From NCBI GenBank assembly GCA_016207245.1, contig JACQQA010000012.1, positions 5,722 through 69,721 on the forward strand: DNA of 64,000 nt, given 5' to 3'. The DNA comes from Candidatus Magasanikiibacteriota bacterium (GTDB taxonomy: Bacteria > Patescibacteriota > Patescibacteriia > Magasanikbacterales > UBA922). The position numbers and the translations under genes were made by a program. Every line of letters begins with the position of its first letter. The stretch's first letter is position 1. Shown here piece by piece: positions 2,764 to 62,944 of the stretch. Under the pieces are notes generated by a model. That model was given only the letters and a program-made list of their open reading frames with translations. It did no database searches and was not told the DNA's origin.

Positions 2764-3103
2764 AATGAATTTATTCACTTATTCCGTAGCGCCCCGACGT
2801 TACGTCGGGATCAACGAAATAAGCAATTTGGTTAAATGTATCTATCGACTCTCGCGAGCCTCGACCTATTTGATAGACACTGCCCTTTTCTCCGCCTTGC
2901 TTTGCCAGCCTTGGGCTGTGGGCGGAGCCAACTGTATGGCTAAATAATTTCCCCCTAGCGGGGAATCACCGGCTTTGATTTATCTAAATTTATCAGAACC
3001 GCTGATCCCCCGCCATGGCGGGACTGACCATACAATTTTTAAAGAGCATTGTTAATAATTTATCCAGCACCTTCCCGGAATACCTCGCAAGAAGGTGCTG
3101 GAT

Positions 3104-4970: not shown

Positions 4971-5264
4971 TGCACCACCTTAATCACTACACCACCGCAC
5001 CACTGCGATGTTTGACTGATTTTCTACTTATCCACAGCTAAATATATAACAAAAACTAACCCCCGCGGGGGAGCCAGACACTGTAGTCAAAATAGTATAG
5101 CATAAGTTAGTGTAAAAGGCAAAAAAATTTTGAAACAGAATGCAAAACACAGATAACAGAATGCAACGAGCGGAGCGCTTGTCAGTAAAGTTAAGAAGAA
5201 AATCACAACTGTATTTTGCTATCCCTGCCTGCCGGCAGGCAGGTGTATTCTGAATTCTAAAAAT

Positions 5265-5284
5265 TGTATACAACACTCTATACT
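5265..5284. promoter_or_regulatory. 20-bp inverted-repeat operator-like site, copy 1 (TGTATACAACACTCTATACT)
   Basis: AGTATA...TATACT inverted repeat with 8-bp spacer. Nearly identical to copy 2 at 5331-5350 and related to copy 3 at 5432-5451. Confidence 0.5.
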
Positions 5285-5330
5285 TTCATAAAACAAGGCT
5301 AATTTTTAGGCTAACCTAAAACACAAAAAT

Positions 5331-5350
5331 AGTATACAACACTCTATACT
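5331..5350. promoter_or_regulatory. 20-bp inverted-repeat operator-like site, copy 2 (AGTATACAACACTCTATACT)
   Basis: 19/20 identical to copy 1. Lies in the divergent intergenic region between the sigma factor and the HTH gene. Confidence 0.5.
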
Positions 5351-5402
5351 ATTTTTTATAATCCTCTTTTAATCGCCTATTTTGAATATCCACACCTAAA
5401 CA

Positions 5403-5451
5403 TTGACATTTTTCTGTAAATAATTTACAATAGTATACACTAGTCTATACT
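5403..5451 (+). promoter_or_regulatory. Sigma70-like promoter (TTGACA-N17-TACAAT) overlapped by operator copy 3 (AGTATACACTAGTCTATACT), directly upstream of the HTH gene
   Basis: TTGACA at 5403-5408, 17-nt spacer, TACAAT at 5426-5431. The near-perfect 20-bp palindrome at 5432-5451 sits between the -10 and the ATG at 5455, as expected for autorepression. Confidence 0.5.
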
Positions 5452-5454
5452 TCT

Positions 5455-5799
5455 ATGACTGAAATACGGACAAAAAACAGCCAAAAACAGATGGTTAGGG
5501 TGTCTATTTCAGAAGCCGCGAAGTTATTTGGCTTAAATCAGCAGACAATCCGCCGCGCCATTGCTAACCAAGAATTAACCTATATTGTCGTTGGCGGACG
5601 CTATAAAGTGAACTTTGAAAGTTTGGTGCGCTGGTCTCAGGCAAAAACAGCATTAAAAAATAAGCTGGACAAACAAGGTATTGGGCAGTATGTGGATAAG
5701 TGGAAAATAAAAAACACTCTTTACTCCCCTAGCCCGAAAGTTATACCAAAGATTGATGATATTGATGGCGAGGCAATACAAAATAAATCCGCTCAATAG
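5455..5799 (+). CDS. Excisionase/MerR-superfamily helix-turn-helix DNA-binding protein (HTH_17-like)
   Basis: VSISEAAKLFGLNQQTIRRAIANQELTYIVVGGRYKV matches the excisionase-family DNA-binding domain pattern; 114 aa. Confidence 0.65.
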   Translation: MTEIRTKNSQKQMVRVSISEAAKLFGLNQQTIRRAIANQELTYIVVGGRYKVNFESLVRWSQAKTALKNKLDKQGIGQYVDKWKIKNTLYSPSPKVIPKIDDIDGEAIQNKSAQ

Positions 5800-7804: not shown

Positions 7805-7933
7805 TATCTGTCAATTTATGCCCAAATCGGGTATATTGGCAAGAGGAAGGACCGACGCTCTTTACAATAGATTGGATTCGCCATGTTGGCGAGTCTTGCG
7901 ATTTTCGTAATTTCAAGAAAAGCGAGGTGCGCG

Positions 7934-10399
7934 ATGGAGACTCTGGAAAAGGTCGTGGCGGTCGCAATGCTGTTCCTGTTCGCGATTCTGTTCGTTTCTG
8001 CGGGCTGTTCTACTGGAGTCAAATGGCAGTGCAAGAAGGACTTGGACTGCGACGACGACAATCTCTGCACCAAGGATTCTTGCAGTGCTGGCATCTGCCA
8101 CTTCGCGAAAGTCAAAGGGTGCGACAACCAGCAGGTGTGCGAAGACGACACTTGCGACAAGACTAACGACGGCGAGTCCAAGGTTGACTCGTCCCCGCCT
8201 CCAGACAATCCGTACAATCCACCGCCGGACACTACCACACCTGAACCCAGTCCGGACACAACGGACACTATTGACAGTGGAACGGAGAACGAGGAAGGCG
8301 GGACGACGGAGACGACCGACACCGCCAACCACGATACGGCGGATACGGACGCGACTAATGGAGATGCGGAAGTTGAGAGTGCTGACGAAGAAGTTGCCGG
8401 ACAGGATGCGGAAACGGCGGAAGCGGAGACAACTCAACTGCCGTGTATCACTTGTGACAATGACGTTGAAGCGTCAGATGCTGGTAGTGATACTGCCGGC
8501 AATGGAGCTGAGGCGTCAATCGCTAATCCCGATTCAAGTCCGGACACTACGGACAGCGGAACGGGGAACGATGGGACGGACGGGGACGGAGATGGCGGAA
8601 AAATCGTTCTGCCACTTCAAGATACTGTCGTCGGGACTGATACTCCAACTCCAGATGTTGTGATGACTAACGACAGCAGTGTCGGTCAAAACGACGATGG
8701 CACGGCAGGACTTGTAGAAATCGGAGTTGACAGTGAATCAGAGGTTGGTCAGAACACGGAAACGACGGAAGAGATATCTCAATCGCCGTGCATCTGCGCT
8801 GACGACAACAATCCATGCACCGACGACTTCTGCAACGACGCGAACCAGTGCGTTCACGAATCAATCGTGGACTGTTGCGTCAAGAACGTTGAATGCGACG
8901 ATAGCGATGTCTGCAATGGAGTGGAAACCTGCGACGCGAACAAGTGCGTCGGTGGTGAACCTCTCGTCTGCGACGACTTCAATGTCTGCACCGACGACTA
9001 CTGCGACTCGATGGACGGCTGCGTCTACGAGCCAAACTCAAACCCCTGTGACGATGGCAATGCCTGCACGATTGGCGATGTCTGCGAACAGGGCGAGTGT
9101 GCATACACGGAAACGTGTGAGTGCATCACAAATGCCGAATGCGGAGATGGAAACAAGTGCACCACTGAATCGTGCGTTAGCAACAAATGCAAGTACGATA
9201 ACGTGGGATGCAACGATTCCGACGCTTGCACCACAGACACCTGCGCTCCGGAAATCGGCTGTGTGTTCGCACAGATCGTCGTTGACGACAACGATGCCTG
9301 CACGGACGACAGTTGTAATTCGGACACGGGCGTGGCGCACATCATCAAGGACTGCGATGACAAGAATGCTTGCACTGCGGATTCCTGCGTCGATGGCCAG
9401 TGCGTCCACACTAACACTTGCGAGTGCATCACGAACCTTCAGTGCGATGACGAAGACATTTGCAGTGGAGTGGAAACCTGTGACGACAACAAATGTGTCG
9501 CGGGACAAAAACTCATTTGCAACGACTTCAACGTCTGCACCACCGACACATGCGACCCGGACAAGGGTTGCGTGTACGAACCGGTCAGCGGCTGCTGTAA
9601 GGCAGACGTTGACTGCAACGACCTCAACGAGTGCACCGGCGACGCGTGCGTCAAGTCCAGCGGTGAGTGTGTACACTTCGGCATCATGGGCAACTGTGAT
9701 GATACCAACGAATGCACCACTAACGACGCGTGCAAGGACAGCAAGTGCGTCGGCGGGCCAGCTCCTAGCTGCAATGACAACAATGTCTGCACCGCGGACT
9801 CGTGCGATTCGGCCATCGGCTGTCAGCATTCAGCTGTCAGCGACAACACGTCGTGCGCGGACAGCACAGTCTGCAATGGCGCGGAAACGTGCCAAAGCGG
9901 ACAATGCGAATCTGGCACGCCGCTTGTCTGCGACGACGGAAATCTGTGCACCGACGACTCATGCGACATGGCAGTCGGCTGCCAGCACGCCAACAACTCC
10001 AACCCCTGCGACGATGGCAACGCCTGCACGATTGACGACAGCTGTTCGCAGGGCGCATGTGAATCCGGTGCTCTCAAAAACTGTGGCGACGGGAAGAATT
10101 GCACCCTTGACATGTGCGATGTCAAGCTGGGATGTTTCAATCCTGTCTGGGGTGTTAACCCCAATGATGACTGCGGTAAATGGGACACAGACGGCGACGG
10201 CAAACAGGACAACGGCGCTGACGTGGACTCCGATAACGACGGGGTCTGCGATCCTGGCGAGTCGCAAACCACCGGACAACCTTGCGTCGGGTCGGATAAT
10301 TGCTGGCTAAAAACAAATCCCGCCCAAACCGATACCGACAACGATGGTCTTGGCGACGCCTGCGACCCGGACAAAAATGGAGATGGCATCCCCGACTAA
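7934..10399 (+). CDS. Secreted cysteine-rich repeat protein: CTDC-type (Dictyostelium-repeat / DUF4215 / Myxococcus Cys-rich-repeat-like) repeats followed by thrombospondin-type-3-like calcium-binding repeats
   Basis: At least 13 repeats with CxDxNxCTxDxCxxxxGC spacing (NVCTDDYC, NACTIGDVC, NKCTTESC, DACTTDTC, NACTADSC, NVCTTDTC, NECTGDAC, NVCTADSC, NLCTDDSC, NACTIDDSC, NCTLDMC). The C-terminus DTDGDGKQDNGADVDSDNDGVCDP...DTDNDGLGDACDPDKNGDGIPD has DxDxDG spacing. An acidic T/D/E-rich linker lies between them. Signal peptide METLEKVVAVAMLFLFAILFVSAGC follows an RBS (GAGGTG) before the ATG at 7934; the tracked ORF starts at 7883. GC content is clearly above the window average. Confidence 0.75.
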   Translation: METLEKVVAVAMLFLFAILFVSAGCSTGVKWQCKKDLDCDDDNLCTKDSCSAGICHFAKVKGCDNQQVCEDDTCDKTNDGESKVDSSPPPDNPYNPPPDTTTPEPSPDTTDTIDSGTENEEGGTTETTDTANHDTADTDATNGDAEVESADEEVAGQDAETAEAETTQLPCITCDNDVEASDAGSDTAGNGAEASIANPDSSPDTTDSGTGNDGTDGDGDGGKIVLPLQDTVVGTDTPTPDVVMTNDSSVGQNDDGTAGLVEIGVDSESEVGQNTETTEEISQSPCICADDNNPCTDDFCNDANQCVHESIVDCCVKNVECDDSDVCNGVETCDANKCVGGEPLVCDDFNVCTDDYCDSMDGCVYEPNSNPCDDGNACTIGDVCEQGECAYTETCECITNAECGDGNKCTTESCVSNKCKYDNVGCNDSDACTTDTCAPEIGCVFAQIVVDDNDACTDDSCNSDTGVAHIIKDCDDKNACTADSCVDGQCVHTNTCECITNLQCDDEDICSGVETCDDNKCVAGQKLICNDFNVCTTDTCDPDKGCVYEPVSGCCKADVDCNDLNECTGDACVKSSGECVHFGIMGNCDDTNECTTNDACKDSKCVGGPAPSCNDNNVCTADSCDSAIGCQHSAVSDNTSCADSTVCNGAETCQSGQCESGTPLVCDDGNLCTDDSCDMAVGCQHANNSNPCDDGNACTIDDSCSQGACESGALKNCGDGKNCTLDMCDVKLGCFNPVWGVNPNDDCGKWDTDGDGKQDNGADVDSDNDGVCDPGESQTTGQPCVGSDNCWLKTNPAQTDTDNDGLGDACDPDKNGDGIPD

Positions 10400-15267: not shown

Positions 15268-15413
15268 AACAGTGCTATATTATAATATCCGGCCTTTTTT
15301 GACAATGCCGCTTATCATAACACAAAATACAGATAACAAAACACAAAAACAACCTGATTATTGTCAAAAACCAACTGTAATGTTAAAATCAATTTATACT
15401 TAACAAACCTGCT

Positions 15414-17111: not shown

Positions 17112-19667
17112 TTATACCACACTTTTCACAATAGTGGTACGCGTCTCCGCCCCAAACTTCTTCTTCAACACTTCTCCAACTCTCACATGCGCCGCGTCAA
17201 CTTCCGCGGATTCGAGTGTCTTGCTGTCTGAACGATAAGTAATGTGATACGCCAGACTCTTTTTACCGGCCGGTAAATTCTTGCCCTCGTAAACGTCAAA
17301 TATTTCCACGCTAGCAATCAGCCGGTCAACTTTTTTAAGCTCAAAAATAATTCGCGCGTGTTCAACTTTTTTATCAACCACAAAAGCAATGTCGCGAATT
17401 ACTTCCGGATAAACCGGCAATGGTTGATAGCGCAAAGAATTTTTTAAAACCAACAATAATTTTTCTAAATCCACTTCCGCCACTACCACTCGCTCGTTAA
17501 TTCCCAAACGCTCGGAAAATGACGGGCTGATCTCGGTAATCGCACCCACGCCTTCGCCATTTACTAAAATTTGCGCCTGCCTGCCCCTGTGGATAACTTT
17601 TCCGAGTTCATGGATTGCCGGCTTTAAAACCACGACACAACCAAGACGATCCAACACACCTGTCAAAGCCGCGGAAAGCTCATAAAATGGCGTTAAAACG
17701 CCTTTACCGGCAAAAACCAGACCCAAATACAGCGGCTGGCCGGGCAATAATTCATCGCTGTTTCCGGAAACCCGCAAACCGGCGACCTCGGAATTAAACA
17801 CTCTGCCGATCTCAAACATTCTTACCGCGTCAAAACGATGCAAATTCACTTCCGCGTTTTCCAACAGGCCGGGCCACAAACTGCGGCGCAAAAACGGACG
17901 ATCTTTAGCCACCGGATTGTCCAACTCTATTAAATCAGCGGGGTCAATTCCCAATCTCTCCAATAATTGTGGCGATACGAAAGAATAGTTATACACTTCG
18001 CTGAAACTAAATTCCAGCGCCAAAATTTCTTTTATTCTTCTTTCTAAACTTCTCAACTCGTTTTTAGGCGGAGGAACAATTGGAAACTTTGGCAATGATG
18101 TTGGAATATTGCCATAACCGTAAATCCGCGCCACTTCTTCCACCAAATCTTCGGCAATGGAAATATCTTTTGTCGCGCGCCAGGTTGGAATTTTAACCAA
18201 CAAAACATCTTTTTTTTCTTTAACTTCAAAATCAAGATCGGATAAAATTTTAACCGCCTGTTTCTTTTCTATTTCCAAACCGATTTTTTTAGATAAAAAC
18301 TCCAGCGGCAATTCAATCGGGCCTTGCTGTAAATGAAAATCTTTCACGTCAATAATTTTACTGGCGATTTTCGCGCCCGGGCACAATTCCAATGTCAATT
18401 CCAGCGCTTTTCGCAAAGCCAGTTCGCAATTGTTCGGGTCCAAACTCTTTTCAAACCGCGCCGAGCTGTCAGTGCGCAAACCAAGTTTGACGGAAGTCCG
18501 GCGCACATTCGCGGCATTAAAATTCGCTGATTCATAAATTACAGCAGTCGTCTCATCTTCAACTCCGCTTTCCCGCCCGCCCATCACCCCGGCCAACGCT
18601 ATCGCCTTATCATTTGAACTAATCACCAAATTCTCCGGTGTCAACTCAAACTCTTTCCCGTCCAAACTAACAAACCTCTCTCCCCCTTCCGCCCTTCGTA
18701 CAACAATCGTGATTTTTGATTTTTGATTTTTGATTTTTGATTTATCAAATGCGTGCATCGGCTGTCCCAAATCCAACATTACATAATTGGTGATATCCAC
18801 AATATTATTTATCGGCCGCAGACCGACTGCCAGCAATTTTTTTTGCAGCCAATCCGGCGACGGCGCGACTTTAATCCCCTCAATCGCCACCGCCATATAG
18901 CGAGGACATAATTTTTTATCCTCAACTCGTACGGACAGGTCGCGACCTGTCCCTATCTTGCAATCTTTAATTTTATAATTCACTAATTTTTTATTAAACA
19001 ACGCTCCCACTTCTCTCGCCATTCCATAATGTCCCCACAAATCCGGCCGATTGGACAAACTTTTGTTGTCAATTTCAAAAATAATGTCATCCAATCCGAG
19101 GACTGCGGACAACGCCTGCCCGCCGATGAGGTGGGGACTACCGACGATTTTGTCATTCCCGTGTAAACGGGAATCCATCGCGTTCGATTTCTGGATCCCC
19201 GCCTCCGCGGGGACGACAAATGAGAGGTCTAGAATCTCTTTCTCGTCTTTTAAGGGAAACCTGTCTCCCAATCCAATCTCGGTTGACGCGCAAATCATGC
19301 CGAATGATTCCACGCCGCGGATTTTCGCTTTTGCCAATTCAACCAATTCGCCTTCGCCGTGCCAGCGCACTTTCGCGCCAATTCTGCCAAACGCGACTTT
19401 CATCCCCTCTTTCACATTTGAGCCGCCGCAAACCACTTGCCAATCTTGCGCGCCGTCATTAACTATACAAACTTTTAACTTATCCGCGTCAGGATGTTTA
19501 ACAACTTTTTTTACCAAACCAACAACAATGTTATCCAAATCTTTTCCTTGCTTAACAATTTTTTCCACCTCCACCGTGCTCATTGTCAATTTCAACGCCA
19601 ACTCTTCCGGAGTGAGAGAGTTTGGCAGATCAATGTATTGTTTGAGCCAGTTAAAACTTATTAACAT
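17112..19667 (-). CDS. pheT: Phenylalanine--tRNA ligase beta subunit
   Basis: 851 aa; N-terminus MLISFNWLKQYIDL and a B3/B4 region (DDIIFEIDNKSLSNRPDLWGHYG). Contains apparent in-frame repeat-element insertions at 19152-19217, 18950-18969 and 18711-18745. Confidence 0.9.
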   Translation of the reverse strand: MLISFNWLKQYIDLPNSLTPEELALKLTMSTVEVEKIVKQGKDLDNIVVGLVKKVVKHPDADKLKVCIVNDGAQDWQVVCGGSNVKEGMKVAFGRIGAKVRWHGEGELVELAKAKIRGVESFGMICASTEIGLGDRFPLKDEKEILDLSFVVPAEAGIQKSNAMDSRLHGNDKIVGSPHLIGGQALSAVLGLDDIIFEIDNKSLSNRPDLWGHYGMAREVGALFNKKLVNYKIKDCKIGTGRDLSVRVEDKKLCPRYMAVAIEGIKVAPSPDWLQKKLLAVGLRPINNIVDITNYVMLDLGQPMHAFDKSKIKNQKSKITIVVRRAEGGERFVSLDGKEFELTPENLVISSNDKAIALAGVMGGRESGVEDETTAVIYESANFNAANVRRTSVKLGLRTDSSARFEKSLDPNNCELALRKALELTLELCPGAKIASKIIDVKDFHLQQGPIELPLEFLSKKIGLEIEKKQAVKILSDLDFEVKEKKDVLLVKIPTWRATKDISIAEDLVEEVARIYGYGNIPTSLPKFPIVPPPKNELRSLERRIKEILALEFSFSEVYNYSFVSPQLLERLGIDPADLIELDNPVAKDRPFLRRSLWPGLLENAEVNLHRFDAVRMFEIGRVFNSEVAGLRVSGNSDELLPGQPLYLGLVFAGKGVLTPFYELSAALTGVLDRLGCVVVLKPAIHELGKVIHRGRQAQILVNGEGVGAITEISPSFSERLGINERVVVAEVDLEKLLLVLKNSLRYQPLPVYPEVIRDIAFVVDKKVEHARIIFELKKVDRLIASVEIFDVYEGKNLPAGKKSLAYHITYRSDSKTLESAEVDAAHVRVGEVLKKKFGAETRTTIVKSVV

Positions 19668-19668
19668 A

Positions 19669-20733
19669 TCAGAATTGTTTTAAAAAACGCAGATCCCCGC
19701 CCTGTAAATGTCTAATATCATCAATACAATACCTTTGCATCACCAAACGAGTCATGCCTAAGCCAAAAGCGAAACCCGTCCATTCTTTCGGATCCAAACC
19801 GCCGTATGCCAAAACTTTCGGATGCACCAGACCGCACGGCATTGTCTCAATCCAGCCTGAATGTTTGCACGCCCCACAGCCAACACCGCCGCAGATCAAA
19901 CATTTTATATCCAATTCAAAACCGGGTTCAACAAATTGAAAATGCCCGGGACGCAAACGCGTCTCAACATCGCGCTTAAACACTCCTCGCAATAATTCCT
20001 TCATCACGCCGATTAGGTGAGAGACAGAAATATTTTTATCCACAACCAAACCTTCCAATTGACAAAAAGTGTGCTCATGCGCCGCGTCAGTCGCTTCGTT
20101 GCGGAAACAACGCCCAGGCACCACCATCCGAATTGGCGCGCCATACTTCTCCAAAGCGCGCACCTGCATAGACGATGTTTGGGTGCGCATTACCCAATCA
20201 GAATGGCTTTTGATATAAAAAGTGTCTTGGGTATCGCGAGCCGGATCGTCAGATGGCATATTAAGCGTGGTAAAATTATAATACTCGCTCTCCAACTCCG
20301 GCCCATCCAGCACCATAAAACCCATGGAAGTAAATAAATCTTCCAAATTATTCTGAACTAAAGTGTTGGGATGCAAATGTCCGGCCTCTTTTGCCGGTAA
20401 CTTTGGCTGAGTAACGTCAATAGTTTCTTTTTCTAAAATATCTCCCATTTCCGACATTTTAATTTCCTCTTTTTTCTTCGCGAACACTTCTTCCAGTTCA
20501 TGTTTAACTTCATTTGCTAATTTGCCAAACTCCTGCCGCGCTTCAACAGAAAGGTCTTTCAAATTTTTCATCGCCTGCGTCAGCTCGCCGGAACGGCGGG
20601 AAAAAAATCTTTGTTCCAATTCTTCCAACTGCAAGACATTCTTAATCTCCACCAAACTCTTCAAAAAATCCTTTTTAATTTTTTCTAATTGTTCCTTCAT
20701 AAATAAAGATACTAATGCTTTTTTATTTGTCAT
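19669..20733 (-). CDS. pheS: Phenylalanine--tRNA ligase alpha subunit
   Basis: Class II motifs FRNEATDAAHEHTFCQLEG and GFAFGLGMTRL. The tracked start at 20733 lies inside a tandem repeat element; the ATG at 20698-20700 (MKEQLEKIKKDF...) is the more likely start. Confidence 0.9.
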   Translation of the reverse strand: MTNKKALVSLFMKEQLEKIKKDFLKSLVEIKNVLQLEELEQRFFSRRSGELTQAMKNLKDLSVEARQEFGKLANEVKHELEEVFAKKKEEIKMSEMGDILEKETIDVTQPKLPAKEAGHLHPNTLVQNNLEDLFTSMGFMVLDGPELESEYYNFTTLNMPSDDPARDTQDTFYIKSHSDWVMRTQTSSMQVRALEKYGAPIRMVVPGRCFRNEATDAAHEHTFCQLEGLVVDKNISVSHLIGVMKELLRGVFKRDVETRLRPGHFQFVEPGFELDIKCLICGGVGCGACKHSGWIETMPCGLVHPKVLAYGGLDPKEWTGFAFGLGMTRLVMQRYCIDDIRHLQGGDLRFLKQF

Positions 20734-20798
20734 TCCCGCGAAAGCGGGAACCCAGAAATCGCGTTGTCATTCCCGCGAAAGCGGGAACCCAGAAATCG
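20729..20798. repeat. Tandem direct repeat (2 x ~37 bp) of hairpin unit GTCATTCCCGCGAAAGCGGGAACCCAGAAATCGCGTT
   Basis: Two near-identical units, each a GTCAT-led hairpin (TCCCGC-GAAA-GCGGGA). Member of the GTCAT...ATGAC hairpin element family. Confidence 0.8.
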
Positions 20799-20813
20799 TA
20801 AAAATCGCTCTCG

Positions 20814-21110
20814 TCAAATCATCTCCTCCCACAAATCATGCCAATTCAAGTTAAAATTTTCTATTAATTTTATTTTCCAAGCACGGTTCCATTTTTTTAA
20901 TTGTTTTTCTCTTTTGATCGCTTCTTTTATATCATCAAAAACTTCATAATAAACCAGATTGTGAACTTTGTATTTTTGAGTAAAACCGCGTACTATATTG
21001 TTTTTGTGTTCATACACTCTGCGTTGTAAGTCGTTGGTGACGCCGATGTATAATGTGCCGTTTCTTTGGCTGGCCATGATATATACGCAGTAATGCCGCT
21101 CCTTGAACAT
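20814..21110 (-). CDS. GIY-YIG nuclease superfamily protein (UPF0213-like)
   Basis: YCVYIMASQRNGTLYIGVTNDLQRRVYEH contains the GIY...YIG motif; 98 aa. Confidence 0.75.
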   Translation of the reverse strand: MFKERHYCVYIMASQRNGTLYIGVTNDLQRRVYEHKNNIVRGFTQKYKVHNLVYYEVFDDIKEAIKREKQLKKWNRAWKIKLIENFNLNWHDLWEEMI

Positions 21111-21130: not shown

Positions 21131-21162
21131 GATTTTTGGATCCCCTTTTTCAAGGGGATGAC
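21131..21162. repeat. Half-copy of the hairpin element (GATTTTTGGATCCCCTTTTTCAAGGGGATGAC)
   Basis: Reverse complement of the first half of the 29690-29755 element; ends in ATGAC. Confidence 0.7.
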
Positions 21163-21192
21163 AAGCCGCTTACTACAGTATATTTAGTATTA

Positions 21193-22335
21193 TTATTTTA
21201 TCAATCCCCATACATCTCTCCCCGTCACCACGACAATCAAAATCATAAGTAAGACAAAACCAATGGTGTGGGCGAGTTGTTCATATTTCATCGGCAAAGG
21301 CCGGCGGATTATTTTTTCAATTAAAATAAACAAAATGCGGCCGCCGTCCAGAGCCGGAATCGGCAGAATATTGATGGCGGCAAGAGATAGCGAAATCATC
21401 GCCGTCACATTGATTAAATAGCTAATACCCAACCGCGCGCTTTGGCCGACCATTACCGCGATTCCCACCGGACCGGAAACATCAAACATCAAACCCTGAC
21501 CCAAAATTAAATTTTTAATCAACAAATAAAAAGCGATAAAAATATTTATTAACCCGATACCCGCCGCAAAAAAACCTTTATACATGGCGATATACCATGG
21601 GTAGCGCACAATGCCAGCATCAGCGAGCATTACCCCAAAACGCGGACTGCCATCTCCGGGTTTTATCAAGCGCGGCGTCATTTTTAATTCCATCTTTTGC
21701 CCGCTTCTTTCAACCAACAACAACATTTCTTTGGCAAAATTCGCCTGCACATAACCAACCATGCTTTCCGAACTTTTAATTTCCTGCCCGTCTATTTTTA
21801 AAATCCGATCGCCGAATTTAATGCCAGCCTCTTCCGCGGGCGAGGCTTTATCCACTGCCTGCACCATTACCTGCGCCGGTTCAACTATTATCGCGTATTT
21901 CCCCGGATCAACCGACAGGTCAGTCGGCAAACCGATCATAAAACCAACAGACAAAAGCGCGCCGGCCAAAATCACATTCATGGTCACGCCGGCGGCTAAA
22001 ACCACGGCCCGTTTCCAAGCTTTTTGAAAACCAAAACTGTCAGGCTCATTCGCTTGCCCGCCGTCTTCGCCTTTGATACGAACAAACCCGCCCAGTGGCA
22101 ATAAGTTTAAAGAATATATAGTAGCCGGAATTTCTTCCTCATCTTTTTTCTTTCTAAATTTCCAAACCAACTTTTTTGTCGCTTGATCGCGATAGACACC
22201 CAACACTCGCGGCGGAAAACCAAAACCAAACTCAAAAACCCTCATTCCCGACTTGCGGGCAGTGATGAAATGGCCAAACTCATGTGCTAAAACAAGGAGG
22301 CCGAGAATTAATATGAAGATAATGATAGTTACCAT
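21193..22335 (-). CDS. rseP: RIP metalloprotease RseP (site-2 protease, M50 family, with PDZ domain)
   Basis: HEFGHF zinc motif inside the first TM helix; 380 aa with multiple TM segments and a central PDZ-like region. Confidence 0.85.
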   Translation of the reverse strand: MVTIIIFILILGLLVLAHEFGHFITARKSGMRVFEFGFGFPPRVLGVYRDQATKKLVWKFRKKKDEEEIPATIYSLNLLPLGGFVRIKGEDGGQANEPDSFGFQKAWKRAVVLAAGVTMNVILAGALLSVGFMIGLPTDLSVDPGKYAIIVEPAQVMVQAVDKASPAEEAGIKFGDRILKIDGQEIKSSESMVGYVQANFAKEMLLLVERSGQKMELKMTPRLIKPGDGSPRFGVMLADAGIVRYPWYIAMYKGFFAAGIGLINIFIAFYLLIKNLILGQGLMFDVSGPVGIAVMVGQSARLGISYLINVTAMISLSLAAINILPIPALDGGRILFILIEKIIRRPLPMKYEQLAHTIGFVLLMILIVVVTGRDVWGLIK

Positions 22336-23919: not shown

Positions 23920-23972
23920 AGATTGAATTGTTAAATTGTAAGAATCGACAGCGTTATTTATACTTCTTAAAG

Positions 23973-24067
23973 TCATTGCGAGCCTTCGCAGGCGAAGCAA
24001 TCCACACCGTTATCGCGTTCCCGTGCGATTGCTGGATTGCTTCGTCGCGCGAGCTCCTCGCAATGAC
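23973..24067. repeat. MITE-like element with terminal inverted repeats GTCATTGCGAG...CTCGCAATGAC (~95 bp)
   Basis: GTCATTGCGAGCCTTCGCAGGCGAAGCAATCCA ... GCTGGATTGCTTCGTCGCGCGAGCTCCTCGCAATGAC. Both halves are themselves hairpins. Related copies lie at 36880-36924 and 47103-47191. Confidence 0.8.
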
Positions 24068-24160
24068 TGTTTTGCCACATAAAGCTCGTAAAAGTATAAA
24101 CAACGCGACTAATTCTTACAGCTAAATTGTTAAAAAAAATCCTTCAAAAAGGATTGATTT

Positions 24161-25042: not shown

Positions 25043-25603
25043 ATGATAATTATAAAACAAAAATTACACCACCGAAAAAATAATCGCCTGCGTGGCTACG
25101 ATTATTCATCGAACGGTTTGTATTTCATAACAATTTGCGTCAAACACCGATTAAAACACCTCGGCGGTGTTTGGAACGCAAAAATGTGCGTCAATCGATT
25201 CGGTTCAATCGTTTTGCAACAATGGAATTGGTTGGCCGAACAATATCCGTATATTATATTGCACGAATTCGTCGTCATGCCAAATCACGTACACGGTATT
25301 GTGCAAATTGATTCATCATTGTTATCGTGTAGGGACAGGTCGCGACCTGTCCCTACACCGAATGCCGACACCACAATCAACCATATAACAAATAAAAAAA
25401 CGAAAATAAAACCATTGTCCGAAATCGTCGGCGCGTTCAAAACCACATCATCAAAATCAATCCATCGGAATGGTTTCCCACAATTCCAATGGCAACGATC
25501 ATTTTACGACCATATTATCCTTGACGAAAAATCATATTTTGCCATCACCAATTATATAAAACAAAATCCCGTCATTTGGTGGCGGGATAGAAATAATTTG
25601 TGA
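25043..25603 (+). CDS. REP-associated tyrosine transposase (RAYT)-like / IS200-IS605 TnpA-family HuH Y1 transposase
   Basis: GYDYSSNGLYFITICVKHR (N-terminal RAYT-like block), HuH motif VMPNHVHGIV and catalytic Tyr block YFAITNYIKQNPV. A 28-bp perfect palindrome (25329-25356) sits between the HuH and Tyr motifs. Confidence 0.7.
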   Translation: MIIIKQKLHHRKNNRLRGYDYSSNGLYFITICVKHRLKHLGGVWNAKMCVNRFGSIVLQQWNWLAEQYPYIILHEFVVMPNHVHGIVQIDSSLLSCRDRSRPVPTPNADTTINHITNKKTKIKPLSEIVGAFKTTSSKSIHRNGFPQFQWQRSFYDHIILDEKSYFAITNYIKQNPVIWWRDRNNL

Positions 25604-27120: not shown

Positions 27121-29673
27121 TTGCGGTGTATGGCTATACCTATGTCTACCAACCCAACCCAGCTTCTGGATCGTTTTTCCACGCATTTGCGCAATGTAAT
27201 CGCCAAAGCCATGACGCTGGCAAATTCTCTTGAACATGACGAGGTGTCGCCTCTGCATCTTTTGTTATCTTTAAGCGAGGAAAAAGGCTCGGTCGGCGCG
27301 GAAGTACTAATACGGTTTAACTTTAATCAAAAATACGCCTTAAACCTGCTTTCGGAAAAACCTCAGTTGCGCCGAAATAAGGGCGACATCGCCATCGCTA
27401 ATCTGCCGGAACTTGACGCTAAAGCCAAACAAGCGGTTGAACGCGCGATTTTAATCGCTTACGAGCGCAACCACCATCATATCGGCACTGAACATTTGCT
27501 GTTTGCTTTGGTCGTCGGACATAGCCAAGAAATTGAAACCGCGCTGAAACAAAATAAAATATCTCTTGAGGATGTTAATAATCAGCTTGATGATATTTTC
27601 CAAAGCACCAGCCGCTTTCCGGAAATTGAAGACGTGTCTAGTGTGATGGAACATTTGGAAGAAATGGTGGGAAAAGAAAATATCGGCGCGCTCCCCCGCC
27701 CGCAACCGCTTGCCGCCAACAGTAAAAATAAAAAACCGCAAATCACGGCTTTGGATATTTTTACCAATAATTTAACTGACAAAGACGCGCAAAAAAATAT
27801 TGATCCGGTCATTGGCCGGGAAAATGAAATTGAGCGGGTAATCCACATTCTCTCACGCCGAACAAAAAACAATCCGGTCTTGGTCGGCGAACCGGGCGTA
27901 GGCAAAACCGCGATTGTTGAGGGATTGGCAAAAAGAATCAGCGAGGGTAATGTGCCTGACATTTTAAAAAATAAAAAAATCTTCGCGCTTGACGTTACTC
28001 TGCTTTTGGCCGGAACGATATATCGCGGTGAATTTGAAGCGCGCCTGAAACAAATCGTGGACGAAATCGCCAAATCGCCGGATTATATTCTATTTATTGA
28101 CGAACTGCACAATATTATCGGCGCCGGCTCCAGCCAAGGCGCGATGGACGCGGCGAATATTTTGAAACCGGCCTTAGCGCGCGGCAACCTGCGCTGTATC
28201 GGCGCCACCACGATTGATGAACACAAAAAATATATCGCTTCCGACCCGGCGCTGGAACGGCGTTTTCAATCGGTCATCATTGATGAGCCGACTGAAGCCG
28301 AAGCTAAAATGATAACGCGCGGAATTAAAAAATATTACGAAGATTATCATAACGTGAAAATCAGCGATGACGCCACGGACGCGGCCGTGGAATTAAGCGT
28401 CCGCTATATCCACGATAATTTTCTGCCGGACAAAGCGATAGATCTGCTTGACGAAGCCTGCGCCGCGGCGCGAACCAAACAAAAACACACGCCGATTGAG
28501 GCGCAAAGACAAAGATTTTTGGCGTTAAAAGAGCGGTGCATAAATTTAAAAATAACCGCGATCAAAAAAGAACAACTGGACGCGGCGTTGGAATTAAAAA
28601 ACGAATTGAAAGAAATAGAAGACCAGATCAGTCTTTTAAATCAAAAAACGGCTAACGCGAAAAAAACCGTCGGCAGTAAAATCACGCGCCAAGACATCGC
28701 CCGCGTGCTGGAGCGGCGGCTGAATATTGGTCTGGAAACAATATTGGCGGATGAATGGAAAAAACTGGCAGACCTGTCAGACAGATTGGAAAAACAAATC
28801 ATTGGCCAAGATGAAGTAATAGGATCAATCATCAAACACCTGCGCCAATCTTATTTGGGTTTGCGCGATCGCAAAAAACCTTTAGCATCTTTTCTTTTTG
28901 CCGGACCGAGCGGGGTTGGCAAAACCGAATTGGCAAAATTGCTGGCGCGCGAACTTTATAATGATGAAAAATCGCTGGTCAAACTTGATATGAGCGAATT
29001 TTCCGAACCGCACAGCACCGCGAAGCTCCTCGGCTCCCCGGCCGGATACATCGGCCACAAAGACCGCAATCGATTTTTGGATGATATCAAACAAAAGCCG
29101 TATTGCGTGGTATTGTTTGATGAAATTGATAAAGCCCACCGCGACGTGGTTAAGTTGCTTTTGCAGATTCTTGACGAAGGGCAGTTGACTGACAGCAATG
29201 GCAAAAAAACCTATTTTAATCACGCGATAATTATCTTAACCACCAATCTCGGCTCGGAATTCTTCAAATCCGCCGGCATCGGCTTTGGCCGGGACGCGAA
29301 AGACACAAAAAATCGCGATCAGACTGTCATTGGCAAATTAAAAGACGAATTTTCGCCGGCGTTGATCAACCGCTTGGATTCGGTGGAAATTTTCTCGCCC
29401 CTCACCCAAGCCGCGGTCGCCAAAATCGTGGAAGCAAACTTGAAGCAGGTCAATGAACAGCTGGGTAAAAATCAACAGCTTAATATCAAGTCCGACCAAA
29501 CCGCGATCGCCTCTTTGGCTTCTGAATCTTTCAGCGAAGAATTCGGCGCGCGGCAGGTGGACAAATTCATCAGAGACGTAATGCAGGAGCTGGTGGTTAA
29601 GATTATGGAAAAAGAAAAAAAGAAAAAAAATTACACTCTCAAGAGAGAAAAGACGGGGTATAGTTTGAGATAG
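27121..29673 (+). CDS. clpC: Clp/Hsp100 AAA+ chaperone (ClpC/ClpB family)
   Basis: Clp N-domain repeats at the N-terminus, two nucleotide-binding domains with Walker A GEPGVGKT and GPSGVGKT, and a short coiled-coil middle domain; 850 aa. Confidence 0.85.
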
Positions 29674-29689
29674 AGGCTTGTCATCCCCT

Positions 29690-29755
29690 TGAAAAAGGGG
29701 ATCCAAAAATCACACACGATGGATTCCCGTTTCCACGGGAATGACAATTCATAAA
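29690..29755. repeat. Complete two-hairpin MITE-like element (GTCATCCCCTTGAAAAAGGGGATCCAAAAATC ... GATTCCCGTTTCCACGGGAATGAC)
   Basis: Terminal inverted repeats GTCAT/ATGAC; each half is a GC-stem hairpin. Lies downstream of clpC. Confidence 0.8.
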
Positions 29756-29768
29756 GCATTAGTATTTT

Positions 29769-33380: not shown

Positions 33381-33428
33381 AAAGGGATCCCTCGGCTCTC
33401 CCGCCATGGCGGGATCGCTCGGGATGAC
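33381..33428. repeat. Partial hairpin element containing perfect palindrome CCCGCCATGGCGGG and an ATGAC terminus
   Basis: GGGATCCCTCGGCTCTCCCGCCATGGCGGGATCGCTCGGGATGAC. Same CCCGCCATGGCGGG core as at 3008-3021, 36836-36849 and 47163-47176. Confidence 0.7.
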
Positions 33429-34877: not shown

Positions 34878-36247
34878 GCGATATGAAAAGCGGTAATAAT
34901 ACAATCTTCATCTGCTCCAACTGCGGCGCCCAATACCAAAAATGGACGGGTAGATGTTTAGAGTGTGGAAAATGGGGAACCGTCGTTGAACAGAATGCAG
35001 AATACAGCGAACAGAAAGCAAACGAAAAGAATTATGCACCGACTAAAACAATTAAATTATCAGAAATTAAAGGAGAAAATGTAAAAAGACAGCAGACGAA
35101 TTTGGCTGAATTTGATCGGGTGTTGGGCGGCCCTTCGACAAGCTCGGGGCAAGGCGGGATTGTGCCGGGGAGTTTAATTTTGCTGGGCGGAGAACCGGGA
35201 ATCGGCAAATCAACCTTGGCAATTCAATTGGCCGCAATAATACCAAACACGTTATATATTTCCGGCGAAGAATCCGTGGAACAAATAAAATTACGCGCTG
35301 AACGTCTACGGCTTACGGCTTCTAGCTTACGGCTGGCCAATGAAACATTGGTGGAAAAAATCTGCGCCACGATTAAAGAAACAAAATCGCCGTTGGCGAT
35401 AATTGATTCCATCCAAACAATTTATTCCGACGAAGTTCCCGGTGAACAAGGCAACATCAATCAAATTAAAGCCTGCGCGGTAAAACTTTTGGAAACCGCG
35501 AAATCAACCAACACCGCGATAGTCATTGTCGGCCACGTGACCAAAGACGGCGAGGTCGCCGGACCAAAAACCTTGGAACATTTGGTTGATGTTGTTCTTT
35601 ATCTTGAAGGCGAGCGCTATCATCAATATAGAATTTTAAGAACGGTAAAAAACCGATTTGGCCCGACTGATGAAGTGGGTATTTTTGAAATGAAAGAAAA
35701 TGGCTTGCAGGAAGTAAAGAATCCTTCCGCCAGTTTTCTTTCCGAACGCGGAGAAAATATGCCGGGAAGCGTTGTTACTTGTTTGTTGGAAGGAACGCGT
35801 CCGCTGTTGGTGGAAATTCAAGCGCTGGTAAATAAAACATCATTCGGCTATCCGGTGCGCAAAGCCAGCGGGTTTGATTTGAATCGTCTGCATGTTTTAA
35901 CCGCGGTTTTGCAAAAACGCGCCGGCTTGAATCTGGCGCAATATGATATTCATCTCAATGTTGTCGGCGGCATCACTGCCGACGAACCCGCGGCTGACTT
36001 GGCTGTTTGTCTCGCCATCGCCAGCGCTTACAAAGATAAAAAACTCGGCGCGGATTTAGCTGTCTTCGGCGAGGTCGGACTCGGCGGCGAAGTGCGCGGC
36101 GTTACGCAAATTGAAAAAAGAGTGAGAGAGTGCGAGAAGTTAGGAGTGAAGAGGGTGATTACACACCTAAATACGCAAGCACTTAAACACTTAAACATCA
36201 AAGTGACAGATGTGAAGAACATACAGGAGCTGATAAGACAGACGTAA
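34862..36247 (+). CDS. radA: DNA repair protein RadA (Sms)
   Basis: Zinc finger CSNCGAQYQKWTGRCLECGKWG, Walker A GGEPGIGKSTL and a Lon-like C-terminal domain. The probable start is M at ~34883. An in-frame repeat-derived insertion (PSTSSGQG) lies at 35133-35158. Confidence 0.85.
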   Translation: MHYQISDMKSGNNTIFICSNCGAQYQKWTGRCLECGKWGTVVEQNAEYSEQKANEKNYAPTKTIKLSEIKGENVKRQQTNLAEFDRVLGGPSTSSGQGGIVPGSLILLGGEPGIGKSTLAIQLAAIIPNTLYISGEESVEQIKLRAERLRLTASSLRLANETLVEKICATIKETKSPLAIIDSIQTIYSDEVPGEQGNINQIKACAVKLLETAKSTNTAIVIVGHVTKDGEVAGPKTLEHLVDVVLYLEGERYHQYRILRTVKNRFGPTDEVGIFEMKENGLQEVKNPSASFLSERGENMPGSVVTCLLEGTRPLLVEIQALVNKTSFGYPVRKASGFDLNRLHVLTAVLQKRAGLNLAQYDIHLNVVGGITADEPAADLAVCLAIASAYKDKKLGADLAVFGEVGLGGEVRGVTQIEKRVRECEKLGVKRVITHLNTQALKHLNIKVTDVKNIQELIRQT

Positions 36248-36835: not shown

Positions 36836-36924
36836 CCCGCCATGGCGGGACAAAAGCGGGCATTGTAAAGAACGAACGACTGGATTGCTTAGTCAACGCC
36901 TCATCGGCGACTCCTCGCAATGAC
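36836..36924. repeat. Hairpin elements: palindrome CCCGCCATGGCGGG (36836-36849) plus half-element CTGGATTGCTTAGTC...CTCCTCGCAATGAC (36880-36924)
   Basis: Related to the right half of the 23973-24067 element. A terminator-like hairpin (AAAACCCCGCTTTTTCAGCGGGGT) follows at ~36931-36958. Confidence 0.7.
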
Positions 36925-42935: not shown

Positions 42936-43634
42936 CTAACATGCTTTCACCCTTTCCATCATAATATCTTCAAAATTCCCCCCCTGTTTCAAAAAAATCC
43001 CTTCCTGTTTAACCAATTCCAGCAAAGCCAAAAAACTCACAATCAGTTCCGTCCGGCTTCTGCTACCCTTGAGAATGCCGAACAAACTTGCCTGCTTCGC
43101 CCTTGCCAATATTTTTTTAATCTCTTCAATTTTTTCTTTCACGGAAACAGTTTTATCAATCTGCGTCTGCGGCAATGGCGGCAGTGGCTTCAACTTCCTA
43201 ATTAGTTTCTCCAAACTTGACCGCAGATTTTCAGCGGAAAAATTTTTCGGCGGGATAAATTCAGCTGGACGGCGGGGCGGTTCCACCCTAAATACCGAAC
43301 GCCGCGGCTCGTTCCAGCGCCGATTAAACTTCTTGCTTGCTGAAATAAACGCCTGATAAAGCCGTAGTTGATCTGCCAAAGATGGTCCGTCTTCCTCATC
43401 CTTGCCCAATTGCGGCAATAATTCTCTGGATTTAATAAACAACAACCGAGTGGCCACCACTAAAAAATCGGCCAAGTCTTCCGGCCGCTTATCCTCTATT
43501 TTGGAAAGATGATCCAAAAACTGTTCCGTAACTTCCGACAGCGCCAGTTCGCTCACGCTCATTTGCTTTTCTTCTATCAAGTTAAGCAGAACATCCAATG
43601 GACCGGAAAACTTGTCTAGTTTGAAATGCATAAC
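42936..43634 (-). CDS. scpA: Segregation and condensation protein A
   Basis: Starts MHFKLDKFSGPLDVLLNLIEEKQMSV (ScpA N-terminal signature). The tracked ORF extends upstream to 43790, overlapping aspS. Confidence 0.7.
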   Translation of the reverse strand, partial: VMHFKLDKFSGPLDVLLNLIEEKQMSVSELALSEVTEQFLDHLSKIEDKRPEDLADFLVVATRLLFIKSRELLPQLGKDEEDGPSLADQLRLYQAFISASKKFNRRWNEPRRSVFRVEPPRRPAEFIPPKNFSAENLRSSLEKLIRKLKPLPPLPQTQIDKTVSVKEKIEEIKKILARAKQASLFGILKGSRSRTELIVSFLALLELVKQEGIFLKQGGNFEDIMMERVKAC

Positions 43635-43743
43635 GACAAAAAACAGAATACCGATAGCAGAATGCCACGAGTTGGCGATAGCAGTTAAAAATTCTTCGCA
43701 AATGTATTCTGTTATCTGATTTCTGTATTCTGAAAACCAATTT

Positions 43744-46625: not shown

Positions 46626-47705
46626 CTAATTTTGTGCGGATTTCCTCAACTTACACACAAAAAACCCCTCAATCTCCTTTGTCGGCATTATCCGCAGGGC
46701 TTTTTTGACAACATCTGGATTTACCACCTTATTTTTCCACAACTTCACACACGACAATCGCCGAATATCTAATACTCCAATATCCAATATCTCGCCATCG
46801 CCATTCCGTTCCAAAAATTTCGTCATCTGCAATTCGTTCTCCTCCGGCGCGAAGGTGCAAGTGGAATAAACTAAAATCCCGCCGGGTTTTAGCGCGCTCC
46901 AGGCGGCGAGCAAAAGCCCCCATTGCTTATACGTCATTTCTTTTATTTTTTGCTCTTTCCAATAACCGTGGGTTTTCGGCTCGCCGGCGATAAACCGCGC
47001 TTCGGCGCTGCAGGGGGCGTCAAGCAATATCTTGTCAAAATATTCCGGATACTCGCGGCACAGAGCGCCGCCGTGCTCCATCCTCAACGAAAACCGCCAA
47101 CTGTCATTGCGAGCGACCGAAGGGAGCGCGGCAATCCAGTATCCGTCCTGGATTGCTTCGTCCCCCGCCATGGCGGGGTCCTCGCAATGACAGACGATAC
47201 CGAGCGCCTCCATATTATGCTTTAACTTAAAAAATCTAATTTTGTTATTATCATTCGCCACTAATTCACCTCTTAGCCCTCCGCCCAAGGCGGATCCGTC
47301 TGGGTCGGACATCAACGCCGCGATCTGCGAAGTTTTGCTTCCGGGCGCGGCGGTCAAATCCAAAACTTTTTCTCCGGGTTGGGGATCCAAAACCAACGGC
47401 GGAATCATACTCGCCAAACTTTGGATATAAATTTTTCCCTCATTATAAATATCCAAATCCGTTAATTCTCTTTTGCTTTTGTTTAACAAAATAAACGCGT
47501 CTTTATACCACGAAACTTGTCTGATCTTAAATCCTCGCTCAACGAGTGATGTAGTGATGATGTGATGCGGTGATTTAAGTGTATTAACGCGAAAAGTAGT
47601 AGAACGTTCAACAAAAGTTTTCTCAATCTCGCGAAACAAAGAAACGCCAAACATCTCTGTCAGGCGCTCTAAAAATTTTTCCGGCAGACTACGATCATGG
47701 AACAT
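46626..47705 (-). CDS. rRNA (cytosine-C5) methyltransferase, RsmB/RsmF (NOL1/NOP2/Sun) family
   Basis: SAM-binding DLTAAPGSKTSQIA, catalytic DAPCS and YSTCT motifs. Contains three apparent in-frame repeat-derived insertions (46764-46791, 47103-47191, 47283-47297). Confidence 0.8.
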   Translation of the reverse strand: MFHDRSLPEKFLERLTEMFGVSLFREIEKTFVERSTTFRVNTLKSPHHIITTSLVERGFKIRQVSWYKDAFILLNKSKRELTDLDIYNEGKIYIQSLASMIPPLVLDPQPGEKVLDLTAAPGSKTSQIAALMSDPDGSALGGGLRGELVANDNNKIRFFKLKHNMEALGIVCHCEDPAMAGDEAIQDGYWIAALPSVARNDSWRFSLRMEHGGALCREYPEYFDKILLDAPCSAEARFIAGEPKTHGYWKEQKIKEMTYKQWGLLLAAWSALKPGGILVYSTCTFAPEENELQMTKFLERNGDGEILDIGVLDIRRLSCVKLWKNKVVNPDVVKKALRIMPTKEIEGFFVCKLRKSAQN

Positions 47706-62383: not shown

Positions 62384-62476
62384 AACAATTCACGGTGCAA
62401 GACACAAGTAACAAGATACAAACAAATTACAAATTTTAATTTCCAAAATACAAATTTGTAAATTTTGATTTGATTA

Positions 62477-62944
62477 TTATTTGTTTCTTGTTTCTTGATT
62501 ATTATCAATCACTTTTCCCCCCGCTTTCTCTATCAATTCTACCGCCTTTTTGCTGGCAAGACAATCTTGCAAAGTAATTGGTTTTTTAATTTCACCGGTG
62601 GCGACAACTTTAACGCCAAATTTGACATTGCCAATCAAACCGCGTGTTTTCAAAAATTTCGGCGTTATAATTTGGTTCTTTTCCGCAATCCGTTCAATGT
62701 CGCTTAAAGTGACGGTGGCTTTTTTTATTTGCAAACTTTTAAATCCGCGCAATTTTGGCACTCTAAGCAAAGCCGCTTTGAAAGCGCGAATACGGCGCCG
62801 GCTCTTGCCGCCGGAACGAGCGGTTTGGCCTTTACCGCCGCGGCCTGAATAAGTTCCCCGGCCGGAGGCATTGCCGCGTCCAACACGTTTGGTATAGCGA
62901 TGTGAACTACGGGCTGGTTTAATTGTTGCGGGTGTTAGCGTCAT
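62477..62944 (-). CDS. rplO: 50S ribosomal protein L15
   Basis: GRGNASGRGTYSGRGGKGQTARSG glycine/arginine-rich N-terminus; 155 aa. Confidence 0.85.
   Translation of the reverse strand: MTLTPATIKPARSSHRYTKRVGRGNASGRGTYSGRGGKGQTARSGGKSRRRIRAFKAALLRVPKLRGFKSLQIKKATVTLSDIERIAEKNQIITPKFLKTRGLIGNVKFGVKVVATGEIKKPITLQDCLASKKAVELIEKAGGKVIDNNQETRNK

Follow-up and report, generated by a model that had tools for sequence, protein, structure and literature searches.

CGTC-tagged palindromic repeats and a predicted Ssn-type nuclease gene in a Magasanikbacteria genome, with copies read in frame in pheT and an rRNA methyltransferase gene

Introduction

Palindromic elements that lie in frame in housekeeping genes, which tolerate them, were reportedly described in Rickettsia by Ogata et al. 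in 2000 and 2002 (Rickettsia palindromic elements, RPEs). Here we describe repeats read in frame in conserved genes that stay intact, as RPEs do, in a 64,000-nt stretch (hereafter the window: positions 5,722 to 69,721 of contig JACQQA010000012.1, assembly GCA_016207245.1), lying on an 89-kb metagenome-assembled contig from NCBI. The best matches of its phenylalanyl-tRNA synthetase beta chain (PheT), a GIY-YIG protein and an rRNA methyltransferase are from Candidatus Magasanikbacteria, within the Candidate Phyla Radiation (CPR)/Patescibacteria. GTCAT-led hairpins are scattered through the window, occur in frame in pheT and the methyltransferase gene, and flank a gene for a predicted single-stranded DNA (ssDNA) nuclease.

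CGTC-tagged repetitive extragenic palindromic sequences (REPs) were defined by Di Nocera, De Gregorio and Rocco (2013; BMC Genomics 14:522; PMC3733652) by a CGTC or TGTC tag, an 8–9 bp stem starting with AT, a loop of 4–5 nt and a CCA tail, with most copies arranged as inverted dimers. The same authors equated these repeats with dRS3 of Neisseria and with RPE-6 and RPE-4 of R. conorii, described in-frame intragenic dimers that encode 20–30 amino acids (some of them in tRNA synthetase genes), argued that many REPs are transcribed, downstream of open reading frames (ORFs), and concluded in 2013 that no dedicated transposase was known for the family (PMC3733652). The Neisseria repeat NTS, CGTCATTCCCGCGMAVGCGGGAATCYRG, was later generalized as Ssn-related motifs (SRMs) (Chenal et al., 2025; Nat Commun 16:2388; PMC11893778). 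SsnA, a single-domain GIY-YIG protein of 94 aa (cd10448), binds the hairpin in ssDNA only and makes its cut upstream; Ssn leaves RNA unbound, and in N. meningitidis NTS-flanked DNA transforms less well with Ssn and NTS present (PMC11893778). The motif accompanied 71% of ssnA loci and stood on both sides of the gene in 42%, and the NTS-ssnA-NTS arrangement was likened to an insertion sequence by its authors (PMC11893778).

The window repeats are members of this published family, variously named CGTC-tagged REPs, dRS3/NTS and SRMs, and are not new; the pairing of repeat and nuclease and the in-frame habit have likewise been published already. The finding thus belongs in a well-described class, to which the window adds a further lineage and some extra evidence: a CPR host, recurrent hot spots in PheT and the RsmB/F-family methyltransferase (RsmF), cassette breakpoints at repeat heads, and in-gene copies that have kept their hairpins. 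The window unit TGTCATTCCCGCGAAAGCGGGAACCCAG equals the NTS consensus except at two positions (the first base and one tail base). As at ssnA loci, a GIY-YIG gene of the ~95–100 aa class has the motif on both sides, with gene-less copies scattered nearby, although the protein is known here as a predicted nuclease, from sequence alone, the host is a CPR bacterium, and the hairpin tip of long variants holds additional, nested palindromes. About 2% of N. meningitidis NTS copies are intragenic; two of the nine loci originally listed in the window are in frame in essential genes.

The match to CGTC-1 extends to the TGTC/CGTC tag, the 8-bp stem starting with AT, the 4-nt loop, the CCA tail, the inverted pairing of unlike stems and the in-frame intragenic pairs. 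Nevertheless, the five phyla listed for CGTC REPs do not include Patescibacteria, the window carries an ssn gene where no dedicated enzyme was recorded, and its long-type copies do not fit CGTC families 1–4 as described (PMC3733652). A reading of the window made from its letters alone (the sequence-only reading) had proposed RPE-like behavior as an analogous phenomenon in a different lineage. The in-frame insertion was correctly recognized, but the relationship is closer than analogy: since CGTC REPs were equated with RPE-6 (CGTC-1) and RPE-4 (CGTC-4), the resemblance is one of membership of a single superfamily, a tie that rests on that published statement (PMC3733652). The longer RPE-1 type is a different element. 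The repeat-encoded peptides had no Pfam or NCBIfam match at E <= 10, and which RPE models the two libraries hold is unconfirmed. REP/REPIN elements with their RAYT (REP-associated tyrosine transposase; IS200/IS605-related) genes are comparable in that their hairpins bear a short unpaired tag and form inverted pairs, a small gene stands between copies of its own repeat, and the action is on ssDNA. They differ in their GTAG tag (CGTC in the window family) and in their enzyme, an HUH/Y1 transposase rather than a GIY-YIG nuclease; in the window pairs, moreover, the recognized hairpins lie on opposite strands.

We consider it likely that these are CGTC-REP/SRM repeats with an Ssn partner that would have spread selfishly, in an Ssn-dependent REP- or MITE-like manner (MITE, miniature inverted-repeat transposable element), with the copies in essential genes being filtered survivors.

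Repeat Family and Its Copies

Each unit comprises a (T/C)GTCAT head, a GC-rich hairpin and an ATCCAG tail, often followed by aaatcg; its four parts are a (T/C)GTC tag, a stem of ~8 bp starting with AT, a short loop and a CCA(G) tail. Full elements consist of two inverted units with heads outward, and most copies are such pairs, of 66–95 nt. The modular family of GTCAT-led hairpins with inverted pairs proposed in the sequence-only reading was borne out by a strict scan for GTCAT, a hairpin, and (A/C/T)TCCA or ACCCA, which recovered six units (0.2 in Markov shuffles of the window). The published degenerate SRM pattern, HGTCWYN(0-2)YYVSBRHN(0-5)WNVSBRGN(0-2)RNCYNB, has three matches (19151, 20728, and 20765) against 0.14 expected from Markov shuffles; the remaining units have the head and tail of an SRM, with stem sequences outside the strict pattern. 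When pairing was not imposed, GTCAT-N16-ATCC occurred 134 times in 61 of 81 sources, and the six variable stem positions base-pair in 96–99% of copies (128 distinct sequences), through many compensatory pair types.

A short-type pair of two CGTC-1/SRM hairpins at 19150–19219 is in frame in pheT, where it encodes FVVPAEAGIQKSNAMDSRLHGNDKIV; one of its heads is mutated to GTCGT, and 19151–19178 has full CGTC-1 geometry, TGTC-ATTCCCGT-GTAA-ACGGGAAT-CCA. The second short-type pair (29676–29749) is intergenic, between clpB and the next ORF, and 29678–29747 aligns with 19150–19219 over 70 nt at 83% complementarity. Two long-type pairs, outside CGTC-1 geometry, are located at 23973–24067 (intergenic; GTCATTGCGAG...CTCGCAATGAC) and at 47103–47191, in frame in the RsmB/F-like gene, where VCHCEDPAMAGDEAIQDGYWIAALPSVARNDS is encoded. 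The inverted-dimer organization of the pairs at 19150, 23973, 29676 and 47103 is found in similar pairs at four (L007, L010, L023, and L035) of the homologous loci compared with the window (which carry L-numbers; homologous proteins carry P-numbers). The ssDNA folds of the four window pairs have z-scores of −4.4 to −7.4 (−5.1 for the pheT pair, −4.4 at 29676, −6.8 at 23973, and −7.4 at 47103). The short pairs (19148–19221 and 29676–29749) fold with TTGTCA/TGACAA as the outer stem and ATCCA/TGGAT as the central one, plus two independent hairpins; the long pairs (23969–24071 and 47099–47195) fold mainly into one extended imperfect hairpin.

Long-type monomers are present on the minus strand at 33381–33428 (GGAT...CCCGCCATGGCGGG...ATGAC) and 36879–36924 (CTGGATTGC...CTCGCAATGAC), both intergenic, and an intergenic stretch at 2948–3030 is a probable decayed pair with both heads mutated (z = −2.4). 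Of the nine copies in the sequence-only reading, those at 19152–19217 (true limits 19150–19219), 20729–20798, 21131–21162, 23973–24067 and 47103–47191 stand, and those at 33381–33428 (a monomer) and 2948–3021 (decayed) are weaker. Repeats are also present at the two others, with the span of 29690–29755 shifting to 29678–29747 and only ~36879–36924 being convincing within 36836–36924: the left half of the latter (36836–36878) is merely the CCCGCCATGGCGGG palindrome and a spacer, and the whole stretch folds with a z-score of −1.7.

The perfect 14-nt palindrome CCCGCCATGGCGGG occurs at 3009–3022, 33400–33413, 36836–36849 and 47164–47177, four times where 0.01 would be expected, each time next to a long-type repeat or at its tip; it has the look of a small, separate module set into hairpin loops. 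A weak copy at 43484–43520 and a GTCATTCCCG match at 13430 were set aside as chance or too decayed. The flanking sequence AAAGCATTAGTAT (20706–20720 and 29753–29765) was considered as part of the element or as an outward promoter; this was dropped because in L081 ATTAGTATCTTT precedes pheS where there is no repeat, and the window shows no enrichment of the 10-mer.

That most copies lie between genes, right next to a gene end or start, and fold stably would suit RNA-level elements, i.e., transcript terminators, stabilizers or processing sites that have spread or been kept for that role, as would the reported transcription of many REPs downstream of ORFs (PMC3733652). We regard such a role as improbable. 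An Rfam scan of the whole window at the gathering threshold returned three tRNAs alone, with the hairpins covered by no known RNA family, and no T-run follows them; a hairpin acting in this way midway through pheT or rsmF would cut short or cleave an essential mRNA, and the strand-specific conservation of head and tail agrees with the data on ssDNA recognition by Ssn, which does not bind RNA.

The ssn Gene and Its Cassette

The minus-strand ORF 20814–21110, which was not mentioned in the sequence-only reading, encodes a 98-aa single-domain GIY-YIG protein (PF01541 over residues 7–80 at 7e-20). Residues Y10, Y21, R31, H35, E68 and N87 are invariant in 30 GIY-YIG homologs, homologs in very distant phyla are 65–74% identical, and the distant relatives in the PDB are UPF0213 proteins. 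No NCBIfam model is specific to the protein, and tblastn found no ssn paralog within the window. The gene fits the Ssn family of hairpin-specific ssDNA nucleases and is designated ssn-like. It is bracketed by SRMs: on one side by two intergenic tandem direct monomers at 20725–20798 (plus strand; 20728–20755 and 20765–20792 match the SRM pattern), which form the 3′ end of the cassette when read on the minus strand, and on the other by a 5′ monomer at 21131–21170 (minus strand; head at 21165–21158), opposite in orientation to the tandem monomers.

The SRM-ssn-SRM layout recurs among 80 ssn-homologous loci taken from one-genome-per-species contigs of many phyla. A tag-led hairpin was found within 250 nt of the gene upstream at 71 loci, downstream at 78, and on both sides at 69. 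Because this first hairpin detector was lenient (it returned 2.7 units per kb in distant flanks too), we relied instead on direct reading of the flanks and on the pairing-free count given above. In the first 40 of the 80 loci, the flanks mostly read GTCATTCCCGCGAAAGCGGGAATCCAG (GTCAT-hairpin-ATCCAG), the ORF, and then CTGGATTCCCGC..GCGGGAATGAC (CTGGAT-hairpin-ATGAC).

A gene-less pair shares its ends with the gene-carrying cassette. In the repeat search, 21131–21170 matched 29672–29711 over 40 nt at 98%, i.e., this arm of the gene-less pair is identical to the 5′ end of the cassette at 39 of 40 positions, and the 3′ arms are 84% alike. Furthermore, ssn genes whose proteins are 99% identical occupy three different neighborhoods: between an M50 peptidase gene and pheS (the window and L088), beside a CLIPPER-like ORF and RNase III (L087), and beside an IS256-type transposase gene (L089). 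In the window, the M50 peptidase gene is the minus-strand ORF 21193–22335 and pheS the minus-strand ORF 19669–20733; in L081, L083 and L085, there is no ssn between the two. Nucleotide homology with L089 begins at the cTTGTCAT head (window position 21165), and that with L087 stops at ATGACAA (20764).

At the L088 ssn locus, both flanking motifs (243–302 and 640–697) are of the long kind, the loop enclosing a further hairpin, and the 3′ end of the L087 cassette (300–420) holds several incomplete heads and tails. Nesting and tandem duplication are therefore how cassette ends evolve.

The tandem monomers also affect annotation of the adjacent gene. They had been thought to cover the pheS start, which is not so: the ATG of the ORF listing (20731–20733) is that of the ATGAC head of a repeat, whereas the conserved N-terminus MKEQLEKIKKDF, as in L081, L083, L084 and L085, starts at the ATG at 20700 (20698–20700), 33 nt downstream and beyond the repeats. 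ORF 20522–20854, which the sequence-only reading took for a translation artifact of the repeats, does overlap the tandem monomers and is plausibly such an artifact; frame 2 of the hand-translated unit, CHSRESGNP, fits the peptide quoted for it.

In-Frame Insertions in PheT and an RsmB/F-Family Methyltransferase

The reading frame continues through both in-gene copies, and their host ORFs retain every Pfam domain. The pheT gene (17112–19667, minus strand; 851 aa) is intact, with five Pfam domains, and its copy lies just before the B3/B4 domain, as the sequence-only reading had it. Relative to solved PheT structures in the PDB, the stretch that joins the tRNA_bind and B3_4 domains is longer by ~26 residues. 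The segment FVVPAEAGIQKSNAMDSRLHGNDKIVGSPH is absent from most of the 60 closest PheT homologs aligned, including the closest, P0001 (77% identity), and the site, which follows EILDLS, holds other repeat-derived inserts in other lineages. In the DNA of seven relatives (L082, L083, L084, L085, L090, L091, and L092), pheT contains real GTCAT...ATGAC pairs at a near-identical site, with slightly shifted insertion points and different spacers. Across a neighbor-joining tree of 120 PheT sequences, ~11 carry an SRM-derived insert, scattered in at least six places. These inserts stand next to insert-free sisters on the tree; the PheT linker is a recurrent insertion hot spot. In L081, whose PheT is the closest relative (77% identity), a clean pre-insertion site or target duplication was not definable, and a different low-complexity insert, EILDIGNWK, occupies the position.

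Structural modeling, which had been proposed as a check on whether the insert is tolerated, places it in a predicted disordered linker. In the AlphaFold2 model of PheT (mean pLDDT 85.7), residues 153–179, corresponding to the insert, score below 50, as does no other internal stretch longer than a few residues.

The second host gene (46626–47705, minus strand) encodes a 359-aa RsmB/F-family rRNA methyltransferase, and the copy placed inside an rsmB-like gene in the sequence-only reading proved to be a long-type pair read in frame. The repeat-encoded segment is missing from most close homologs, many of which run straight from HNMEvLGV to LRMEHG; the VCHCE...ARNDS segment is common to the window protein and P0242, and other homologs have different repeat-derived segments. 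On these alignments, the PheT and RsmB/F segments are lineage-specific in-frame insertions. On hand translation, the left half of the repeat unit is open in all three frames, and the right half meets a TGA (inside ATGAC) in one frame, which fits a filter on which insertions survive.

The alternative that the segments are not insertions at all, being ancestral protein sequence or the product of misassembly or chimeric joins, deserves mention since the contig is metagenome-assembled and repeats can in principle cause misjoins. It is scarcely credible, given that the ORFs are open with all domains in order, the segments are missing from most homologs, and both the M50-[ssn]-pheS-pheT synteny and the same kind of in-frame element are found in independent assemblies.

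Other repeats occur at neighboring or homologous positions of the two proteins. The methyltransferase has a second variable site at 47240–47300 (residues ~134–148; SDPDGSALGGGLRGE), where a subset of homologs has SDPDGSxSGGKLRG or SQALLRQGYGGQ and most have nothing; a further repeat family, read in frame, is the probable source. A/C-rich low-complexity repeats (AACAGAATGCAAAACACAGATAACAGAATGCAA and relatives) are present in the window at 5134–5166, 15314–15346, 34989–35021 and 43635–43667, and also at 62398–62490. Some of these copies may lie inside window ORFs, and the QDTRNKQ-type and GNWK-type inserts of homologous PheT proteins have, we would guess, a similar sequence behind them.

PheT also has a second hot spot, before VEDKKLCPRY. 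A GTAG-type palindrome at 18929–18955 is in frame there (residues ~238–246; IGTGRDLSVR); among other Magasanikbacteria PheT proteins, several have TGRDLSV or TGLDLSV at this position and others QDTRNKQITNYKLQ, and the AlphaFold2 confidence of the stretch is high, unlike that of the SRM insert. Another GTAG-tagged palindrome, GTAGGGACAGGTCGCGACCTGTCCCTAC, is in frame (RDRSRPVP) at 25330–25356, within a plus-strand ORF (25043–25603) that encodes a RAYT. This ORF has HUH-like PNHVHGIV and SFYDHI motifs, a match to NCBIfam NF047646 at 2.7e-16 (59.8 bits, against a curated cut-off of 80) and a weak Pfam Y1_Tnp match. With RAYT and GTAG palindromes on the one hand and ssn and SRMs on the other, both REP superfamilies are therefore present in the window, each with its own enzyme gene.

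Constraint on the In-Gene Copies

In-gene copies are constrained or homogenized at the DNA level, and not through the protein alone. Between the window and L086, the arms of the RsmF element have no synonymous difference at 22 sites, compared with 78 of 263 in the rest of the gene (Fisher p = 0.0009), while the hairpin tip has been swapped (CCCGCCATGGCGGG in the window, a different tip in L086). The L084 pheT copy has a compensatory stem change that is synonymous, and between the copies in L091 and L092 a compensatory stem change replaces two amino acids (VKT vs. AKA). The latter comparison yielded this qualitative change only, and the sister pair L083 and L090 offered no orthologous comparison for a synonymous test in PheT because their insertion points differ.

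These observations bear on the view, proposed for Neisseria NTS, that the repeats are DNA marks of service to the host: Ssn cleavage signals on incoming or exposed ssDNA that would limit recombination or transformation near particular genes, the in-gene copies being kept since marking essential genes is useful. The lowered transformation of NTS-flanked DNA in N. meningitidis, the perfect hairpins retained by in-gene copies, arms with no synonymous change against 30% elsewhere in the gene, and the compensatory change retained despite altering two amino acids are all in its favor. However, the insert is patchy in PheT (about 10% of 120 homologs), its insertion points vary even between sister lineages, the window contains decayed copies (2948–3030 and the left half at 36836), and ssn itself shifts between genomic contexts; all of this fits selfish turnover better than a conserved host function, and we consider the DNA-mark view doubtful as the main explanation. 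The two are not mutually exclusive.

The absence of synonymous drift in the arms and the pairing kept at an amino-acid cost could also mean that the in-gene hairpins are active or selected parts of a mobile system. On this reading, SRM-ssn-SRM would be an autonomous insertion sequence of a new, GIY-YIG and ssDNA-dependent type, and the 66–95 nt pairs its miniatures. To this hypothesis, merely raised by Chenal et al. (PMC11893778), our data add element boundaries and several genomic contexts, and we put it forward tentatively, as something short of an even prospect. If Ssn cassettes are indeed transposons, the small genomes of CPR bacteria would be good material for defining their ends and target choice.

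Spread of the Repeats

The reading that we favor is the more general one, of a selfish, REP- or MITE-like mobile family that would depend on Ssn. By the literature, Ssn enzymes bind the hairpin in ssDNA only, cleaving a few nucleotides 5′ of its tag (PMC11893778); the cassette and the gene-less pairs would together form the mobile family, and copies would land widely. Survivors in essential genes would be those in disordered linkers, with a length that is a multiple of three and off the frame in which ATGAC supplies a TGA. Such copies would be translated as loops of 24–33 aa (VIPAKAGIQ...DSRLRGND); as shown above, in-gene copies have stayed constrained or homogenized as DNA.

The MITE label used in the sequence-only reading is apt for the inverted ends and for the existence of a gene-carrying partner with the same ends (29672–29711 compared with the cassette, with homology ending at the heads); it is less apt in that target-site duplications are not seen and Ssn is not known to act as a transposase. 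Several points weigh against our interpretation. At the window copies inspected, we saw neither a conserved target sequence nor any flanking direct repeat. Each cassette boundary was observed in one cross-context comparison only, because contig ends cut L087 and L089. A pair with heads outward would be expected to be cut on opposite strands, which is no simple fit to IS200/IS605 peel-and-paste. The synonymous silence of the RsmF arms could stem from gene conversion or recent parallel insertion rather than from selection. To our knowledge, Ssn is a nuclease without a strand-transfer activity. The published work shows ssDNA cleavage and an effect on transformation, with no transposition for any Ssn: nuclease activity is demonstrated and transposition merely hypothesized (PMC11893778).

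For annotation, the peptides VIPAKAGIQ, DSRLRGND, CHSRESGNP and SLRSAQND in CPR and 'hypothetical' proteins can be recognized as translated CGTC-REP/SRM hairpins. Start codons in ATGAC heads, as in the pheS call, are artifacts, and false upstream starts are possible elsewhere in such genomes. With varied cassette contexts, recurrent insertion in the same protein linkers and measurable constraint at the DNA level, CPR genomes are natural experiments on whether repeat spread is driven by Ssn.

Other Features of the Window

The plus-strand ORF 7883–10399 (838 aa) contains many cysteine-rich repeats with CDDDNLCTxDSC-like units (repeat families D1–D3); its product is probably a repetitive surface protein. 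At 5259–5451, three direct copies of AAAAATTGTATACAACACTCTATACT, spaced by 66 and 101 nt, lie just upstream of an ORF starting at 5455, and look like an operator or iteron array.

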